Shown piece by piece: positions 1 to 10,967 of a DNA stretch of 10,967 bases (its first letter is position 1; every line of letters begins with the position of its first letter). The stretch comes from a virus (lineage: Duplodnaviria; Heunggongvirae; Uroviricota; Caudoviricetes): positions 1-10,967 of IMG/VR virus record IMGVR_UViG_2541047816_000006; one strand, 5' to 3'. Under the pieces are notes generated by a model that made no database searches, was not told the DNA's origin, and was given only the letters and a program-made list of their open reading frames with translations. Both the position numbers and the translations under genes were made by a program.

Positions 1-3839
<3,839 letters not shown>

Positions 3840-3861
3840 TCATCAGTTGCTGCTATGGAAT

Positions 3862-4185
3862 ATGGTTGACAGTCTGATTAAAACATTAATAGCCATTCTA
3901 ACAATCCCACTGGTTTTCTGGTTTATGAAGAAGCAGTGCCAAAGAGTTGAGACAGGTAAAATCGGTGATGAAGGATACTCATGGGAGAGGGGAAATCCCA
4001 AATACAGGCCGACAATGGTTTGGGATAGCAAAGGAGATATTAACCTTCTTATCATGCCATTGGTTGGAGTTTTGACTCTGTGGGGGATTTTTATTATTGG
4101 TGTAGTAACCAATATGACTTGGTTAAAAATTTGGCTGGCCCCAAAGCTTTACCTTATCGAATATGCAGCATCATTGGTTAAGTAA
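3862..4185 (+). CDS. Small hydrophobic protein with two predicted transmembrane helices (about 107 aa), moron-like cargo
   Basis: ORF in a visibly AT-rich stretch; hydrophobic segments LIKTLIAILTIPLVFWF and LLIMPLVGVLTLWGIFIIGVV; strong terminator immediately downstream. Start uncertain (TTG 3847 or ATG 3862); the frame stays open back to the IS100 boundary (in-frame stop at 3790..3792 inside the IS). No clear Shine-Dalgarno sequence. Confidence 0.45.
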   Translation: MVDSLIKTLIAILTIPLVFWFMKKQCQRVETGKIGDEGYSWERGNPKYRPTMVWDSKGDINLLIMPLVGVLTLWGIFIIGVVTNMTWLKIWLAPKLYLIEYAASLVK

Positions 4186-4189
4186 TTTC

Positions 4190-4215
4190 AGGCCGCATAG
4201 TCGGCCTTTATTTTT
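4190..4215 (+). terminator. Rho-independent terminator
   Basis: Perfect 6-bp stem aggccg / cggcct with loop catagt, followed by ttatttttg; begins 5 nt after the stop codon at 4183..4185. Confidence 0.7.
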
Positions 4216-4244
4216 GGCATAAACAACAGAATAAACACTGCACT

Positions 4245-4272
4245 GTGTATTCATTCCAACGAGTGAATACAC
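4245..4272 (+). promoter_or_regulatory. Perfect 9-bp-arm inverted repeat (candidate operator or RNA hairpin)
   Basis: gtgtattca - ttccaacgag - tgaatacac; arms are exact reverse complements with a 10-bp spacer; sits in a non-coding stretch between two terminators. Confidence 0.4.
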
Positions 4273-4334
4273 GGAGCAATGTCGCTCGTAACTAAACAGG
4301 AGCCGACTTGTTCTGATTATTGGAAATCTTCTTT

Positions 4335-4360
4335 GCCCTCCAATGTGAGGGCCTTTTTAT
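4335..4360 (+). terminator. Rho-independent terminator
   Basis: Stem gccctc / gagggc with loop caatgt, followed by ctttttat. It lies inside the six-frame-track ORF 4320..4595, which argues that ORF's upstream start is spurious. Confidence 0.6.
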
Positions 4361-4424
4361 ATGCATACCAATAACGCTTCACTCGAGGCGTTTTCGTTAT
4401 GCAATCAAACAGAAGGAGCATCCT

Positions 4425-4595
4425 ATGCAACAGTTCGCTATTGCAGGGGCGGCATCGGTTCGCCCTTTCAACCCGATTTTATCGGTACAGCATTCACGAA
4501 AAAACATTTTAACCGGAGCAGACTTTAAACAACCAAGAATGAAAAGTTTGCTCGAAAAGCTTTGGGATATTTTGAAACAACAAGGCCGTCCATGA
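4425..4595 (+). CDS. Hypothetical small protein (56 aa)
   Basis: ATG preceded by AAGGAG with 6-nt spacer; stop overlaps the next ATG (ATGA at 4592..4595). First gene of the plus-strand operon. Confidence 0.45.
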   Translation: MQQFAIAGAASVRPFNPILSVQHSRKNILTGADFKQPRMKSLLEKLWDILKQQGRP

Positions 4596-4699
4596 GTTTT
4601 ACGGATAACTGGTCAGACGAAGAATTCATTCGTCAGATGAACAAAATGCTCAATCAGCACAAAGAACAGGAGAAAGATGATGATTCTGACTCTGAATGA
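4592..4699 (+). CDS. Hypothetical very small acidic protein (35 aa)
   Basis: ATG overlaps the upstream stop (ATGA); product MSFTDNWSDEEFIRQMNKMLNQHKEQEKDDDSDSE; 3' end overlaps the start of the next gene in another frame. Not in the ORF track (under 60 aa); read by hand. Confidence 0.25.
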   Translation: MSFTDNWSDEEFIRQMNKMLNQHKEQEKDDDSDSE

Positions 4700-4988
4700 T
4701 AAGCGTGAAATATCGCAAATAATCGCAAGTTTTACTGATGAAGATTACGAACGAATTAACAGTGAAGTTGATCGCCTCTGCAAACGTTGCGACCCAATAA
4801 GCGAAATGCTTCGCTCATATAAACCAGATGAACACACTAAGGACGCTATCGACTGGCTGGAAGATGATGACTGTAACTATCAGGAAAAAGCCGCTGAATG
4901 GTTCTGGGATGCAATAACCGAAAGAGTTAAGGCTGAATATGCCTTCGCAATATTTAAACGCAGACACATTTTTGGAGAAGCAGCATGA
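4677..4988 (+). CDS. Hypothetical acidic protein (103 aa) translationally coupled to recT
   Basis: Two in-frame ATGs preceded by AGGAG; stop overlaps the recT ATG (ATGA at 4985..4988). No family recognised. Confidence 0.6.
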   Translation: MMILTLNDKREISQIIASFTDEDYERINSEVDRLCKRCDPISEMLRSYKPDEHTKDAIDWLEDDDCNYQEKAAEWFWDAITERVKAEYAFAIFKRRHIFGEAA

Positions 4989-5896
4989 GCAATATCGTTG
5001 AATTCGTTAAACAGCAAGAGCAGTTATTCTGCGGAGCATTGACTGAACAGACGGTGACATGGGCTAAGGAAAGCCAGTTTGCAATTCAGTATTTCCAGAA
5101 AAACGATTACCTGGCTAAAACAGCACTGGCAAATCCAACCAGCGCACAGAACGCCATCATCAATGTTGCGGCGATCGGCATCACCTTAAACCCTGCAAGC
5201 AAACTGGCTTATCTGGTTCCGCGCGATGGCATGGTTTGCCTTGATATCAGCTATATGGGATTGCTCCATATTGCAATGGAGTCTGGTGTTATCTCATGGG
5301 GTCAGGCAAAACTTGTTCATGCTAACGATACCTATGAGTCAAACGGGCTTGATAAAGCACCAACCCATAAATACAACGCCTTCGGTGATCGTGGTGATAT
5401 CGTTGGCGTTTACTGCACAGTTAAGACGCCGGCAGGTGATTATCTAACGGAAGAGATGAGTCTGGCTGAAATTGAGGCTGTAAGGAAAACAAGCAAGGCA
5501 GCATTCAGCGATAAAGGACCATGGGTAAATCACTGGAATGAGATGGCGCGAAAGACGGTCGTAAAGCGTGCAAGCAAGTATTGGCCTAAGGCATCACGTC
5601 TTGATAGTGCTATTCACGTACTAAACGAAGAAGAAGGTGTATGGACTGAACCAGTTATGCCGCACAAATCAGAGGAAGATATCCGCGAAGATGAACGGAA
5701 ACGCCAGCAGGAAATAACGGATAAAGCACAACTTCTTTGTGATGAAATGGCTCAGGCAGAAAACATGGATGATTTGAAGCGATATTTTGCAGAAGCATAT
5801 CGCCTGACATCTGGAATGAAATTGCAGCAGAACATACAAGCCATTTACATAGAATGCAAAGCGAAACTGGAGGTTGCCAGTGAGCAAACTGTATGA
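4985..5896 (+). CDS. recT: RecT-family single-strand annealing recombinase (303 aa)
   Basis: Segment KGPWVNHWNEMARKTVVKRASKYWP closely resembles the conserved GPWVTHWEEMAKKTAIRRLFKYLP region of Rac-prophage RecT as I recall it; size typical. Confidence 0.88.
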   Translation: MSNIVEFVKQQEQLFCGALTEQTVTWAKESQFAIQYFQKNDYLAKTALANPTSAQNAIINVAAIGITLNPASKLAYLVPRDGMVCLDISYMGLLHIAMESGVISWGQAKLVHANDTYESNGLDKAPTHKYNAFGDRGDIVGVYCTVKTPAGDYLTEEMSLAEIEAVRKTSKAAFSDKGPWVNHWNEMARKTVVKRASKYWPKASRLDSAIHVLNEEEGVWTEPVMPHKSEEDIREDERKRQQEITDKAQLLCDEMAQAENMDDLKRYFAEAYRLTSGMKLQQNIQAIYIECKAKLEVASEQTV

Positions 5897-6362
5897 AATA
5901 GCTAATGAATACGCAAAATTGATGGATTCAGATTTAGAACCAGAGATGATTGCTGACACAATAGAAGGCATGGAAGGAGAATTTACCGATAAAATAGAGC
6001 AACTTCTCGCCATTATTAAAAATGAATCTGGTTATGCTGAACGCCTCAAGGAAGAGGCAAAGTCACTAAATGAGCGAGCCGCAGTAATTCAAAATAAGAT
6101 TGACAGCATCAAATCATATATAGCGTCATCGCTTGAAATGGTTGGCAAGAAAAAGATTCGAGCAGGTATTCACCAGGTAACAATCCGCAAACCGTCAGAA
6201 ACTGTAGAAATCATCGACTCAAGCGCCCTTCCTCCTGAATACGTTGAGTTTGAAACGACAATTAAAGCCGACAAGTTGGCAATCAAACACCAACTAAAAG
6301 CAGGAATAAATATCCCCGGTGCTCAACTCAAAGTTGGGAAACCTTCACTTCTTATCAAATAA
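5880..6362 (+). CDS. Coiled-coil protein, Gam-like / Siphovirus-Gp157-like recombination accessory (about 160 aa)
   Basis: Immediately after recT, overlapping its stop; GGAGG 6 nt upstream of GTG 5880 (track start is TTG 5874). Coiled-coil N-terminal half and C-terminal region resemble small proteins commonly paired with recT; family assignment is tentative. Confidence 0.55.
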   Translation: MSKLYEIANEYAKLMDSDLEPEMIADTIEGMEGEFTDKIEQLLAIIKNESGYAERLKEEAKSLNERAAVIQNKIDSIKSYIASSLEMVGKKKIRAGIHQVTIRKPSETVEIIDSSALPPEYVEFETTIKADKLAIKHQLKAGINIPGAQLKVGKPSLLIK

Positions 6363-6373
6363 CGATATCGCCT

Positions 6374-6688
6374 ATGAAAAAGACTCCTTGGGAGAAATGG
6401 GAAGTCGATTTCTTGCGCGAAGTAGCGGCAACAATGCCAGTTGAAGTTATCGCTGAAAAACTGGAAAGGACTGAAAAAGCAGTAATGGCGAAAGCAACAA
6501 GGATTGGCGCTGACATTGTTAGCCGACTTCGTGGAAGACGCTGGACAAGAGCCGAAGTATCACTTTTCGGTAAGTTCTCCGCAGAAGAAATAGCAATTGC
6601 AACCTGCCGCTCAATTTATTCAGTGAGAGCTATGCGATACAAGCTAAAAAAACTCGATGAAGAAAGAGCAGGCATACGAATAAATTAA
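6374..6688 (+). CDS. Hypothetical protein with internal tandem duplication of a helix-turn-helix-like module (104 aa)
   Basis: Two similar halves: WEKWEVDFLREVAATMPVEVIAEKLERTEKAVMAKATRIG and WTRAEVSLFGKFSAEEIAIATCRSIYSVRAMRYKL; weak ribosome-binding site. Confidence 0.55.
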   Translation: MKKTPWEKWEVDFLREVAATMPVEVIAEKLERTEKAVMAKATRIGADIVSRLRGRRWTRAEVSLFGKFSAEEIAIATCRSIYSVRAMRYKLKKLDEERAGIRIN

Positions 6689-6704
6689 CATGGAGTAATT
6701 AACA

Positions 6705-6986
6705 ATGAAGCTAAACATCGACCTCGGAAAATACGTTATTACCGGAACCAAACACGACCTGATTCTTAGCGAAAGAGGAATTATCAAAGAAGGCGAGAAT
6801 GCAGGGAAAGAAACACTAAGCCGTATCGGTTATTACAGCAAGTTTGAGCATCTGGTTAAAGAATTATGCGACCGTGAAATCCTGTTATCTCAGGCGCAGA
6901 CGCTACAGGATATTCAGCAACATATCGAGAATTTAGGTGTGTCACTTAGCATGGCTATTGACCAGTTCGTGGAGAGTAAATCATGA
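6705..6986 (+). CDS. Hypothetical protein (93 aa)
   Basis: ORF with GGAG upstream; stop overlaps the next ATG (ATGA). Confidence 0.55.
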
Positions 6987-7147
6987 GAGGACTTGCATAC
7001 AATCCCGGCATTCTTCCGGCAGAAATGATTATTCGCCAACGCGTAAAGCCAATGCCATCGAGAGAGGAATTGCTTAAGAGAAATTCTTTTCCATCAGTGA
7101 ATCAAAACAAATATCTGAATGCGATGTTGCGGAGTGGGAAGAAATGA
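6983..7147 (+). CDS. Hypothetical small basic protein (54 aa)
   Basis: Read by hand (not in track): [54 protein letters not shown]; start overlaps the upstream stop and its stop overlaps the next ATG, filling an otherwise gene-free gap in a tightly coupled operon. Confidence 0.35.
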
Positions 7148-7626
7148 AACAAATGTCACTAATTGAGATGGATGGATTTCTGAAAGGTAAATGCATCCCA
7201 CGAGATTTAAAGGTTAACGAAACAAACGCTGAATATCTGGTGCGTAAATTTGCTGAAGCGGAGGCCAAGATTTCGGCTCTGTACGAAGACCACCAGAAAG
7301 CGATTGAGTCAATTAAGCAGGCTGATGCAGCTGTTAAGTTGGCACACGAGAAGTTTTCGGCGCTGGCAGCAGAGAATACGGAGCTTAAACAGTCGGAGAA
7401 GGAATTTAATAACTTCTGTCGTCAGGAGTACTACGGTTGGGAGGACAACTTCACGGAAACCCCAGCCACCGACGCTTTCCTGGCTGAAATTGAACGCAAA
7501 GCAATCCGCAAGTTCATTAACAGCATTGAACACATCCTGCGTGACAAGTTGTCACCGTATGACACCGAAGAGATGCTTGAGGCTATGCGTATTTTTCTGG
7601 AAGAACAGAGTGGTGAGCAAAAATGA
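7144..7626 (+). CDS. Hypothetical coiled-coil protein (160 aa)
   Basis: ORF coupled on both sides by ATGA overlaps; central region predicted coiled coil ([51 protein letters not shown]). Confidence 0.6.
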
Positions 7627-7928
7627 CAATCACAAAACAACGGTTAGAAGAAATCATATCCCGCATTGAAATGTATGGACATGGTGCAGGGTATACCGCT
7701 GACGAGGTTTATGACCTAGCTGTACTGGCGCTGAATTTATCAAATATCGCAAACCTGAAGCGATACGAGCTTGATATGGATGGTTGTGACTCGTTCGGTC
7801 AGGATTGTGGCGCTGACATGACTGAAGATCCTGATGGCGATTATGTCCTGTTTGATGACGTGGTTAAGTTGTTTGAGTTTGATACATTCGAAAGCCCAGC
7901 AAGGGAGACAACCAGTGAGCAAGATTGA
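7623..7928 (+). CDS. Hypothetical acidic protein (101 aa) with MTITKQRL N-terminal module
   Basis: ORF; N-terminus paralogous to those of the genes starting at 8995 and 9383. Confidence 0.55.
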   Translation: MTITKQRLEEIISRIEMYGHGAGYTADEVYDLAVLALNLSNIANLKRYELDMDGCDSFGQDCGADMTEDPDGDYVLFDDVVKLFEFDTFESPARETTSEQD

Positions 7929-8799
7929 CTATCAGGCACTGCGTGAGGTGGCGGAACGTGCAATTACAGCAATGGAACGCCTGTTAATGTTGCCAGTTGA
8001 TGATGATTTGTTAAGTGAACAGGAACTTAAAGATTACGGTGTGGATATTGATGCGCTCAACGCCTTCAAATTTCTGGCCGGACCAGAAACCGTGCTGGCA
8101 CTGCTGGATGAACGGGAAAGAAACCAGCAATACATAAAACGCCGTGACCAGGAGAACGAGGATATTGCGCTAACGGTAGGGAAACTGCGTGTTGAGCTTG
8201 AGGAAGCAAAATCAAAACTCAACGAGCAACGCGAGTATTACGAGGGAGTAATCGCGGATGGAAGTAATCACATAGCAGAACTGGAAAAACAATGCGCCGA
8301 ATGGGAGCGAAAAGCATTAAGCAACTTTGAAGAGTGTGCTGCGATGGCTGAACGTATCGAAGAGATGCAGACAAAATCTGCGCCAGATTCGTTTGGCATC
8401 ATCGGTGAAAATATTCGAACACAGGACAATCGAATAACGTCAGATCCCATGTTTTGTGTGTATCAAAAGCGCGAAATCGTTGTTGATGCTGATTATGACC
8501 ATGACCGGATTGTCTGGGTTGACGAAGATGGCAATGAAGCCAATAAACGCCATAGTCGTCGTCTCGAGCTACTTCATGAAAACTTTCGAGAGCCACCAGA
8601 AAAATGGCGGCGCGTTGCTGTGAAAGATATTGATGAATTCGTTACCTGCTGTTTCACCGAACAGGGTTGTAAAGACTACCTGGCAGTCAATGGTCACAAT
8701 CTTCGCTTGCCATTTATATATGTAAAAAGCGGTTTCAGGAACGCTGAATATATCGACATAAGAAACTGGCTTGCTGGCATTCGCATCAAAGGAGAGTGA
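7915..8799 (+). CDS. Ead/Ea22-like coiled-coil protein (about 294 aa)
   Basis: GTG 7915 preceded by GGGAGA; the track's upstream start 7834 gives a hydrophobic leader that overlaps the previous gene and is probably not translated. N-terminus SKIDYQALREVAERAITAMERL plus a long coiled coil resembles Ead/Ea22-like proteins of lambdoid prophages (from memory). Confidence 0.6.
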   Translation: MSKIDYQALREVAERAITAMERLLMLPVDDDLLSEQELKDYGVDIDALNAFKFLAGPETVLALLDERERNQQYIKRRDQENEDIALTVGKLRVELEEAKSKLNEQREYYEGVIADGSNHIAELEKQCAEWERKALSNFEECAAMAERIEEMQTKSAPDSFGIIGENIRTQDNRITSDPMFCVYQKREIVVDADYDHDRIVWVDEDGNEANKRHSRRLELLHENFREPPEKWRRVAVKDIDEFVTCCFTEQGCKDYLAVNGHNLRLPFIYVKSGFRNAEYIDIRNWLAGIRIKGE

Positions 8800-8800
8800 G

Positions 8801-8992
8801 ATGAAAGGACAAATATCAATTGTTCGACCGGGAGCATGTGACGATAGCGAGATACGAATGATTATTCGTCTGGCGATGGGGAAAACAATAACAGCTCTCA
8901 TTACTCCAGAAAATCTCGCATTAGCTTTAACCGGAAAGTCAGACCTGCCAGTGGAGCTAAAGCTGCGAAATGTTGAGATTAAGGTGAAATAG
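8801..8992 (+). CDS. Hypothetical small protein (63 aa)
   Basis: ATG 8801 preceded by AAAGGAGAGTGAG; the upstream gene stop lies within this ribosome-binding site. Confidence 0.5.
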   Translation: MKGQISIVRPGACDDSEIRMIIRLAMGKTITALITPENLALALTGKSDLPVELKLRNVEIKVK

Positions 8993-8994
8993 CT

Positions 8995-9381
8995 ATGACC
9001 ACTATTACCAAAGAGCGACTGCTGACAATCAAGCAGTGGCGCGAAACATACGGACCTGGTAGCAACGTTGTACTGCCAGCAGAAGAAGCGGAAGAACTGG
9101 CACGAATTGCTCTGGCATCGCTGGAAGCAAAACCAATAGGTGCATTCCACATTGCAGAACAGCAAGTTGACGGCACAAGTGACTACCTCAAGGATGGAGA
9201 ATGGCCTATTGATAATGGAATTATTGAGGTCTACGCCGCTCCCCCCGTTCCAGTAGTACCGGAAGAAAAACCAATGCCTAATCCTCTTAGCATGTACGCG
9301 GTCGATGCTGTTGCCGCTATTGCAGAGGTGAGAGGCTGGAACGCCTGCCGTGCCGCTATGCTTCAGGGAAAAGGAGAGTGA
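8995..9381 (+). CDS. Hypothetical protein (128 aa) with MTTITKERL N-terminal module
   Basis: ORF 2 nt after the upstream stop; N-terminal module shared with 7623 and 9383 genes; ends ...QGKGE. Confidence 0.6.
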   Translation: MTTITKERLLTIKQWRETYGPGSNVVLPAEEAEELARIALASLEAKPIGAFHIAEQQVDGTSDYLKDGEWPIDNGIIEVYAAPPVPVVPEEKPMPNPLSMYAVDAVAAIAEVRGWNACRAAMLQGKGE

Positions 9382-9382
9382 T

Positions 9383-9928
9383 ATGACCACTATAACCGAT
9401 AAGAAACAGTATCCAGGCGAGCAATATCTTAATGAGCTAATCACCAACATAGAGTTTGCTGCAAGGGCACCAGTTGAAGTCGTGAGAGCGATGGCAGCAG
9501 AGCTACGGAAGCGGCGCGAAGCTGATAGTGCAGAACCTGTAAGCCAAACTTACAAGTTGCCTCCCCTGTCATCCAGCGAAGTAAACGACGCGGCATGGAA
9601 ATTACACAACATGCTGACTGAACACGGCCCGCTAAATGGGCGTCAGTTCAACAATCTGAAAGGTTGCTTCTATGAGGCATTAAAGGTCGCAATGCGCAAC
9701 TATCCGGTAATTCCGGATAGTTGGATAAGCTGTAGTGAGCGAATGCCGGATACCAAAACAGCCGTTCTTGTTGCCAGGGAGTTTGACAGGAAAGGTGACT
9801 GGCGAATGAAATGGGCGACTTACATCCCGGGGCATCCTGACGCTAATGATGGGTGGGTAATACCTGGTGCGTCGTGGATACCATCACACTGGATGCCGCT
9901 ACCAGAACCGCCGCAGGAGGCAAAATGA
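9383..9928 (+). CDS. Hypothetical protein (181 aa) with DUF551-like C-terminus
   Basis: ATG 9383 preceded by AAGGAGAGTGAT; C-terminal WISCSERMPD...GASWIPSHWMPLPEPP resembles the DUF551 signature found in lambdoid ea-region proteins (from memory). Confidence 0.6.
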   Translation: MTTITDKKQYPGEQYLNELITNIEFAARAPVEVVRAMAAELRKRREADSAEPVSQTYKLPPLSSSEVNDAAWKLHNMLTEHGPLNGRQFNNLKGCFYEALKVAMRNYPVIPDSWISCSERMPDTKTAVLVAREFDRKGDWRMKWATYIPGHPDANDGWVIPGASWIPSHWMPLPEPPQEAK

Positions 9929-10185
9929 TGGATGTAAAAGAGAAGGTTTTGCAGGTGATACGTTCCCGTGCTGCCCTGCAAGAGAAAGCTCTCGGCGGGG
10001 AATATCCATTCACGATAGCAACCTGGAATCTGCGGTTGGCAATGGAGAAGGAATTTCCTGATGAAGAATGGCGTTCGGCAGATTTGCGCAAAATTCTTAT
10101 GGAGATTGCTAAAGACGGAACAGTATCTAAAGATAAACATGCCAGCCGGATTGGTCAGGCAGTATGGAGACTGGAGGAGCGGTAA
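9925..10185 (+). CDS. Hypothetical protein (86 aa)
   Basis: ATG 9925 preceded by GGAGG and overlapping the upstream stop (ATGA); the track's longer start at 9853 would overlap the previous gene. Confidence 0.55.
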   Translation: MMDVKEKVLQVIRSRAALQEKALGGEYPFTIATWNLRLAMEKEFPDEEWRSADLRKILMEIAKDGTVSKDKHASRIGQAVWRLEER

Positions 10186-10469
10186 TGGCTAACCTGCAAC
10201 TTGCCGTCAAAGGTGAATACTTCGATGCCATGATTCGCGGGGAGAAAACGGAAGAGTATCGCCTGTGTAATGACTACTGGAAAAAGCGCCTCGTTAACCG
10301 TAAGCATGACCGCCTGATTATCACAAAGGGATATCCGAAGCGCGACGATTCCAGCCGCAGAATAGACGTCCCGTATGACGGATATGAAATCAAGACAATC
10401 ACACATCCGCACTTCGGCGATAAACCGGTAAAGGTGTTCGCGATAAAGGTAAATATCGGCAATGAATAA
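10185..10469 (+). CDS. ASCH-domain (PUA-like fold) protein (94 aa)
   Basis: ATG 10185 preceded by GGAGG, overlapping the upstream stop (TAATG). Contains G-E-K-T-E-E-Y-R, which fits the ASCH signature GxKxxExR, in the context YFDAMIRGEKTEEYR. Confidence 0.55.
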   Translation: MANLQLAVKGEYFDAMIRGEKTEEYRLCNDYWKKRLVNRKHDRLIITKGYPKRDDSSRRIDVPYDGYEIKTITHPHFGDKPVKVFAIKVNIGNE

Positions 10470-10472
10470 CAA

Positions 10473-10500
10473 TCCTCGCACTCGCGGGGATTTCTTTTAT
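10473..10500 (+). terminator. Rho-independent terminator (intra-operon)
   Basis: Stem tcctcgc / gcgggga (7 bp, one G-U wobble), loop actc, followed by tttcttttat; begins 4 nt after the stop at 10467..10469. Confidence 0.5.
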
Positions 10501-10541
10501 CTGAACTCGCTACGGCGGGTTTTGTTTTATGGAGATGATAA

Positions 10542-10709
10542 ATGCACTTCCGAGTCACAGGTGAATGGAATGGAGAGCCATTCAACAGAGTTATCGAAGC
10601 AGAGAACATCAACGACTGCTATGACCACTGGATGATATGGGCGCAGATAGCACATGCAGACGTAACCAATATTCGAATTGAAGAACTGAAAGAACACCAA
10701 GCCGCCTGA
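10542..10709 (+). CDS. Hypothetical small protein (55 aa)
   Basis: Read by hand: MHFRVTGEWNGEPFNRVIEAENINDCYDHWMIWAQIAHADVTNIRIEELKEHQAA; GGAG 7 nt upstream of the ATG; stop codon sits inside the terminator hairpin. Confidence 0.4.
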   Translation: MHFRVTGEWNGEPFNRVIEAENINDCYDHWMIWAQIAHADVTNIRIEELKEHQAA

Positions 10710-10724
10710 TGGCGGTTTTTTATT
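10698..10724 (+). terminator. Rho-independent terminator upstream of the excisionase gene
   Basis: Stem gccgcc / ggcggt with loop tgat, followed by tttttatt. Confidence 0.6.
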
Positions 10725-10766
10725 GCCTGATTTGCAGGTTCGATTCCCTATTTGGAGATAGCACTC

Positions 10767-10967
10767 ATGCAACACGAACTACAACCTGATTCACTGGTTG
10801 ATTTGAAATTCATCATGGCCGATACTGGCTTCGGTAAAACCTTCATCTATGACCGGATTAAGTCCGGAGACCTGCCTAAAGCCAAAGTTATCCACGGGCG
10901 AGCAAGATGGTTATATCGTGACCATTGTGAATTCAAAAATAAACTCTTAAGCCGCGCCAATGGGTAA
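10767..10967 (+). CDS. xis: AlpA-family excisionase / prophage regulatory protein (66 aa)
   Basis: Small protein with the pattern DLKFIMADTGFGKTFIYDRIKSGDLPKAKVIHGRARWLYRDHCEFKNKL, typical of AlpA/Xis helix-turn-helix proteins (...TIYRLIK.G.FP.P.K.G.R...W). GGAG upstream of ATG 10767; stop is the last codon of the window. Confidence 0.7.
   Translation: MQHELQPDSLVDLKFIMADTGFGKTFIYDRIKSGDLPKAKVIHGRARWLYRDHCEFKNKLLSRANG

Follow-up and report, generated by a model that had tools for sequence, protein, structure and literature searches.

A small basic protein of predicted ASCH fold in the early-left operon of a lambdoid or P22-like prophage: a candidate nucleic-acid-binding module

What might a 94-amino-acid protein with an ASCH-type sequence motif do in the early operon of a prophage? 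The locus that raises this question lies near the right-hand end of the window, by which we mean the whole stretch of DNA analyzed here (10,967 nucleotides; positions 1 to 10,967 of the IMG/VR virus record IMGVR_UViG_2541047816_000006). An earlier note, made from the sequence alone, had assigned the protein to the ASCH/PUA-like superfamily and had suggested that it could read or erase epigenetic marks on nucleic acids.

The gene described in that note is present. Its coding sequence occupies positions 10185..10469 on the plus strand, with an ATG codon at 10185-10187 and a TAA stop codon at 10467-10469 (stop included), and direct reading of the sequence reveals a strong Shine-Dalgarno element (GGAGGAG, 10173..10179, plus strand) 5 nt before the ATG. 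The longest version of the open reading frame starts at an in-frame ATG at 10164 and would encode 101 amino acids. We prefer the start at 10185 because of the 5-nt spacing from GGAGGAG and because homologues from other phages and prophages share the N-terminus (M/V)ANLQLAV, some of them with a GTG start codon. The stop codon of the preceding gene and the start codon of the ASCH gene have one base in common in a TAATG overlap (10183..10187, plus strand), an arrangement that suggests translational coupling of the two genes; the homologues of phages HK022 and HF4s have different upstream genes, with which they overlap by 8 nt. Pairwise comparisons with eight homologous genes yielded dN/dS values of 0.07-0.26, and the open reading frame is therefore a genuine protein-coding gene under purifying selection.

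The plus strand of the window includes an early leftward operon of lambdoid or P22-like type. Pfam and PHROGs profiles identify on this strand genes for RecT (at 4985), a Gp157-like protein (at 5874), which is followed by several small unassigned genes, and an Ead/Ea22-like protein (at 7834). Further downstream are two DUF551-related genes: the first (8995-9381) forms a similarity cluster with the second, with HK022_35/36 and with EaA-like sequences, and the second (9383-9928) carries a C-terminal DUF551 domain (E 2.8e-20). The two resemble a tandem duplication or a mosaic of eaA-like modules. The gene immediately upstream of the ASCH gene (9925..10185) encodes an 86-aa protein of family phrog_2814, to which no function is assigned; the profile (positions 1-86) aligns with residues 25-110 of a longer open reading frame. 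On the other side, a 55-aa protein of phrog_676 (10542..10709) is homologous to HK022_33, annotated as an "undocumented homolog present in lambda," and is probably lambda Orf55, for which published modelling proposes that it modulates RNA polymerase in the manner of T7 Gp2 (PMC8614690). The series is completed by an AlpA/TorI-type excisionase gene (10767..10967) that matches phrog_66, "excisionase and transcriptional regulator," and is named torI in RefSeq E. coli genomes and excisionase in HF4s. The ASCH gene thus lies in the early operon, as had been proposed, yet not just upstream of xis: the 55-aa gene intervenes, and the ASCH gene is the second one upstream. Both HK022 and HF4s carry its homologue at the matching place, followed by xis and int.

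No sigma-70-like promoter was found between 9300 and 10967, as would be expected if transcription reads through from an early promoter further upstream. Within the same interval, terminator-like sites are overrepresented (five observed versus 1.5 expected). Two of the hairpins with T-runs (10471-10492 and 10503-10522, plus strand) fall into the 72-nt gap directly 3' of the ASCH stop codon and might serve as antitermination-sensitive terminators of the early-left transcript or as elements for RNA processing or stability. A further clean terminator-like hairpin (10699-10718) overlaps the stop codon of the Orf55-like gene. A search with Rfam across the whole window retrieved no RNA family.

Over its full length the 94-aa protein matches phrog_625 (E 6.7e-50; residues 1-93 aligned to profile positions 1-93 of 98), a family whose function is unassigned in PHROGs. 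It is 90% identical to the "hypothetical" product of HK022 gene 34 and is a typical member of this family, to which 933W L0064-like genes and other genes of lambdoid, P22-like and Jersey-like phages also belong; its multi-domain distant relatives match phrog_625 as well. A profile search of 1.84 billion representatives retrieved 1,288 clusters with E <= 0.001, of which 427 reached E <= 1e-10. The ASCH classification is already public. Clusters with 88-96% identity to the window protein are named "ASCH domain-containing protein" by NCBI/RefSeq, RefSeq E. coli genomes included, other clusters go under "RNA-binding protein" or "DUF3850," and the HF4s copy is annotated as "putative RNA-binding protein; contains ASCH domain." Since the ASCH label is already the standard RefSeq annotation of the protein cluster, the classification as such holds little novelty.

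When 5,426 complete E. coli genomes were examined, 1,705 (31%) proved to harbor near-identical copies of the gene, with a maximum of five copies each, and the gene was found in 332 phage records. The carriers include Stx1- and Stx2-converting phages, HK022, P22-like phages, Salmonella phages of the Guernseyvirinae (Jerseyvirus), and P2-like phages of Ralstonia and Acidovorax. This makes phrog_625 one of the more widespread uncharacterized early genes of enterobacterial temperate phages, Stx-converting prophages among them. A function found for the 94-aa protein would extend to thousands of annotated genes and would inform the poorly understood exo-xis/ea region, which influences lysogeny and the induction of Stx prophages. 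Our literature search, which covered ASCH proteins of phages, the exo-xis region and anti-defence functions, uncovered no study of the phrog_625 subfamily, and we know of no phage ASCH protein with an experimentally known role.

Is the ASCH label justified? At the level of sequence profiles, ASCH (PF04266) was the only Pfam family that the protein approached (residues 6-48, E 0.036), but its score of 15.2 bits fell short of the gathering threshold of 21.2. DUF3850 (PF12961) was not matched at E <= 1. When we examined 58 divergent homologues (41-78% identical) at E <= 0.01, five matched ASCH and two matched DUF3850, the best of the latter weakly (E 0.0017), and no other nucleic-acid-related Pfam family was hit. 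NCBIfam returned no family for the protein. Neither the protein nor the family profile retrieved anything meaningful when searched against PDB sequences; the best matches were a beta-xylosidase and ribosomal protein L15 (E > 0.04).

Structure prediction was more informative. The AlphaFold2 model built with 31 close homologues reached a mean pLDDT of 80.9, and that built with the 58 divergent homologues a pLDDT of 91.4 and a pTM of 0.80; both models have the same topology, with a strand at residues 3-8, a helix at 10-18, a second strand at 23-27, a second helix at 30-36 and then four further strands. In Foldseek searches with the model, ASCH proteins ranked first, and the top two matches had a probability of 0.99 (E ~0.015, TM ~0.5). 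The best structure was 3iuw, which we take to be a DUF3850 member, and 3iuw, PH0355 and YqfB all stood above the Zymomonas mobilis protein ZmASCH. EVE/YTH domains scored below the ASCH proteins and are hence not the closest structural match; these modified-base readers lack GxKxxExR and possess an extra strand or aromatic-cage signatures that we did not see in the window protein. We accept the 94-aa protein as a divergent member of the ASCH superfamily, a placement supported by predicted fold and motif, not by profile score, and with a modest margin over other PUA-like families. The superfamily assignment of the earlier note is borne out in this form: the predicted structure has an ASCH/PUA-like fold, and the profile search singled out PF04266, albeit with a score below its cutoff.

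The motif on which this assignment had been based is GEKTEEYR (residues 19-26; 10239..10262, plus strand), an instance of the ASCH signature GxKxxExR (as defined in PMC6803910) with G19, K21, E24 and R26 as its fixed positions. In the model it runs from the end of helix alpha1 into strand beta2. In all six reading frames of the window, the pattern G.K..E.R turns up once; the expectation per shuffled window is 0.14 occurrences, and only 0.4% of shuffles of the protein itself produce it. It is intact in all 31 close homologues and in 52 of the 58 divergent ones, among which K21 is conserved in 100%, E24 in 98%, R26 in 96% and G19 in 94%. The signature recognized from the bare sequence is therefore rare by chance, conserved, and found at the alpha1-beta2 position in the model.

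Two conserved loops accompany the motif. G49-Y50-P51 (10329..10337, plus strand) follows strand beta3, is conserved in 96-98% of the divergent homologues and would be placed in the ligand cavity. The loop H74-P-H76-F77 (10404..10415, plus strand) connects beta5 and beta6 (H74 93%, H76 70%, F77 93%) and may have a role in binding a base or a metal. Other constrained residues are Y12 (84%), F13 (96%), W32 (100%) and R35 (93%). The strongest constraint thus falls on the ASCH motif and on aromatic and histidine residues, the pattern of a ligand pocket, and we infer that these residues may share one pocket.

Known members of the superfamily provide points of comparison. The ASCH domain superfamily (PF04266), reportedly described by Iyer, Burroughs and Aravind in 2006, includes 3iuw (E. 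faecalis), PH0355 (2z0t) and PF0470 (1xne), among others. In sequence the window protein is similar to these in the motif region only; an invariant W32 and conserved GYP and HxHF loops are features of its own. The closest ASCH structures have no assigned function and offer little guidance on mechanism. Human EOLA1 (5Y7D) possesses, like the window protein, the canonical motif with identical numbering (Gly19, Lys21, Glu24, Arg26), and its motif residues line a cavity together with aromatic residues (PMC6803910). Charge sets phrog_625 apart from another relative: the isoelectric point of the window protein is 9.4, the family median is 9.3-9.4 and 88-90% of the members lie above pI 8, whereas the YqfB family is uniformly acidic (median pI 4.7). 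YqfB-type enzymes use free N4-acetylcytidine (ac4C), and no nucleic-acid binding by them was seen (PMC9599836). This difference between the basic phage family and the acidic users of a free nucleoside favours a nucleic-acid ligand.

The reading that we prefer, with a probability of roughly 55%, is a stand-alone nucleic-acid-binding ASCH module that accommodates a base in its motif-lined pocket and is perhaps hydrolytic. A short accessory gene of the ea/exo-xis block, situated in the leftward early operon between the recombination genes and xis-int, would give rise to a small, basic, single-domain protein with a PUA-like beta-barrel, made early in infection or induction. This protein would bind nucleic acid, probably single-stranded RNA or DNA, and would take up a base or nucleotide in the cavity formed by the GxKxxExR motif at alpha1-beta2 (K21, E24, R26), with Y12, F13, W32, Y50, H74 and F77 probably contributing to binding. 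Hydrolytic chemistry on the bound base or on the backbone is conceivable. The protein would act alone, as a dispensable, horizontally shuffled module of the early genes.

An unlikely alternative is an amidohydrolase akin to YqfB and EOLA1 that acts on nucleosides or nucleobases. It would strip N4-acyl groups from free nucleosides, perhaps also from RNA (converting, for example, ac4C to cytidine), and would thereby feed pyrimidine salvage or erase an RNA mark during phage growth. EOLA1 leaves some room for it, since this protein with its canonical motif is reported in a preprint to deacetylate free ac4C. Catalysis by YqfB-type enzymes, on the other hand, depends on a Lys21-Thr24-Glu74 triad plus Arg26 (PMC9599836). 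When compared with the E. coli N4-acetylcytidine amidohydrolase YqfB (1te7, 9kyf), the window protein has kept K21 and R26, but Glu24, a residue conserved in 98% of the phrog_625 family, replaces the nucleophile Thr24, and no counterpart of Glu74 can be aligned. A YqfB-type mechanism is unlikely on account of both changes. The opposite charge of the two families (pI 9.4 versus 4.7) likewise argues against it. Precomputed PF04266 matches accompany all YqfB homologues listed; the 120 homologues listed for the window protein are without any precomputed Pfam match. Comparison of the phrog_625 profile with YqfB by hhalign confined the likeness to 16 columns (residues 11-26), with E 0.15 for the single sequence and E 0.068 for a 21-sequence profile, a weak negative since that alignment, built from a query identical to PDB 1te7_A, is shallow (83-99% identity).

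Also doubtful is a metal-dependent, ssRNA-specific ribonuclease resembling ZmASCH (5guq/5gus), which would shorten or break down transcripts of host or phage at an early stage of infection. With 143 residues and extra structural elements, ZmASCH differs from the window protein in size, and it ranks under three other ASCH structures in the Foldseek search. An observation made in Dickeya dadantii 3937 deserves mention in this context: Tn-seq scored the "ASCH domain-containing protein" Dda3937_01763 of prophage 1, encoded close to the C1 repressor gene and to the end of the prophage, as essential (PMC13566846). Essentiality is easily overcalled for small genes, which weakens this observation as an argument for a ribonuclease; if Dda3937_01763 belongs to phrog_625, it would hint at a role in prophage quiescence.

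The genomic surroundings of the gene in other genomes bear on the remaining readings. We surveyed the neighbors of the ASCH gene at 17 loci; the genome scan for related loci took in closer relatives (15 loci). At all 17 loci the gene belongs to a series of short genes that overlap and share one orientation; which genes flank it directly varies. DUF551 genes are the most frequent near neighbors (seven loci), followed by Orf55-like, xis and integrase genes (three each), and no conserved partner gene was found across the 17 loci. In some enterobacterial prophages the ASCH gene follows replication genes (DnaB, primase, O-like), and at one locus a C5-cytosine methylase is encoded two genes downstream. 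Distant copies from an alphaproteobacterial MAG and from Polaromonas reside in prophage-like regions with an integrase or with RecT/YqaJ, and a Rhizobium copy is found near a replication initiator (RPA) gene. With its shifting neighbors and without a fixed partner, the ASCH gene behaves as an autonomous, mobile accessory module.

Fusions of the module to other domains are rare. Among representatives clustered at 50% identity, no recognizable Pfam or PHROGs partner was attached to it, save in two exceptions, the first of which joins Ea22 to the ASCH module through the fusion of neighboring genes. The second is a 364-aa protein (P0195) from the deep profile search in which a reverse-transcriptase-like segment (phrog_1423, residues 93-290) is combined with a phrog_625 copy that lacks the first 13 residues; it is probably the product of a retroelement (with a group II intron or retron-type reverse transcriptase) inserted into an ASCH gene, or a gene-call artefact. 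In gp49 of the Acidovorax phage Alfacinha1 (locus L018, 3001-4380), a phrog_625 module (residues 1-90, 51% identical) precedes a PAPS-reductase/PP-loop domain (residues 99-365, E 2.7e-28). The neighbors of this fusion gene are a DUF4406/nucleoside 2-deoxyribosyltransferase-like gene and an annotated cytosine methyltransferase gene. Six clusters, Alfacinha1 included, contain the ASCH/PAPS-reductase fusion, while about 114 other homologues listed lack the N-terminal module. Unfused PAPS-reductase homologues in P2-like prophages often directly follow genes for Dam- or Dcm-type methylases (loci L022 and L023). The fusion together with these methylase neighbors suggests an uncharacterized phage module for nucleic-acid modification. 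We considered a dedicated system of ASCH and PAPS-reductase proteins and rejected it, since four loci with unfused PAPS-reductase homologues are devoid of a phrog_625 gene. The fusion shows that the ASCH module can be joined to an enzyme that putatively modifies nucleic acids. Such a link would be consistent with a part in substrate targeting; it defines no pathway.

These data also bear on the role suggested in the earlier note, that of a modified-base reader or eraser acting on DNA or RNA to evade or mimic modification-dependent host defence. Such a protein might, for instance, protect methylated sites against type IV restriction enzymes. We regard this role as improbable. The rare fusion to a PAPS-reductase-like enzyme is the one hint in its favour, and it is offset by the unfused PAPS-reductase loci without an ASCH gene. 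Neither the ASCH-fold protein nor its six neighbors matched a PADLOC defence profile at E <= 0.01, the 17 loci display no conserved linkage to methyltransferase or defence genes, and we found no support in the literature. The broadest version of this idea, to which we assign an equally low probability, would have phrog_625 proteins act very early in infection as readers or erasers of a modified base, located in tRNA, in rRNA or in the DNA of host or phage, and thereby blunt modification-dependent immunity or reprogram host RNA; the Acidovorax fusion near methyltransferases would then be what is left of a pathway for DNA modification, with the ASCH domain responsible for recognizing the substrate. 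Similarly improbable is an ASCH-like barrel that serves only as a scaffold for binding a host or phage protein (e.g., in the modulation of the lysis-lysogeny decision) with no nucleic-acid contact: the ASCH gene resides in the same exo-xis block as other small proteins that work via protein contacts, such as the Orf73/TraR-like and Orf55/Gp2-like models and Ea22 (PMC8614690), but selection is strongest on the cavity motif and on aromatic and histidine residues, as for a ligand pocket and not for a protein interface, and the family also occurs in Guernseyvirinae (Jerseyvirus) phages, the inspected flanks of which contain no integrase.

The left part of the window has features of its own. The first 1,836 nucleotides (1-1836, minus strand) encode 611 amino acids of a K1-type endosialidase tailspike with End_beta_propel (E 2.4e-158), End_tail_spike and Peptidase_S74 chaperone domains. 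The N-terminus of this protein is missing, as the beta-barrel profile begins at position 48 of 83 at residue 1. The 5' end of the reading frame abuts an IS100 element of the IS21 family (1840-3799; 99% identical to known copies) with its istA (1927-2949) and istB (2946-3728) genes, and the early-left operon lies on the far side of this element from the endosialidase gene. The junction looks like an IS100-mediated truncation or rearrangement, and the prophage is therefore probably defective. None of the complete E. coli genomes in our collection was collinear with at least 80% of the window. Between IS100 and the first recognizable early gene, about 900 bp (3800-4680) contain only weak open reading frames without a Pfam match: one for a hydrophobic 112-aa protein (3847-4185) and two others (4320-4595 and 4562-4699). 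This segment is native phage sequence, because homologous prophages align from position 3795 on, and the end of the early-left operon that serves regulation or immunity may lie here.
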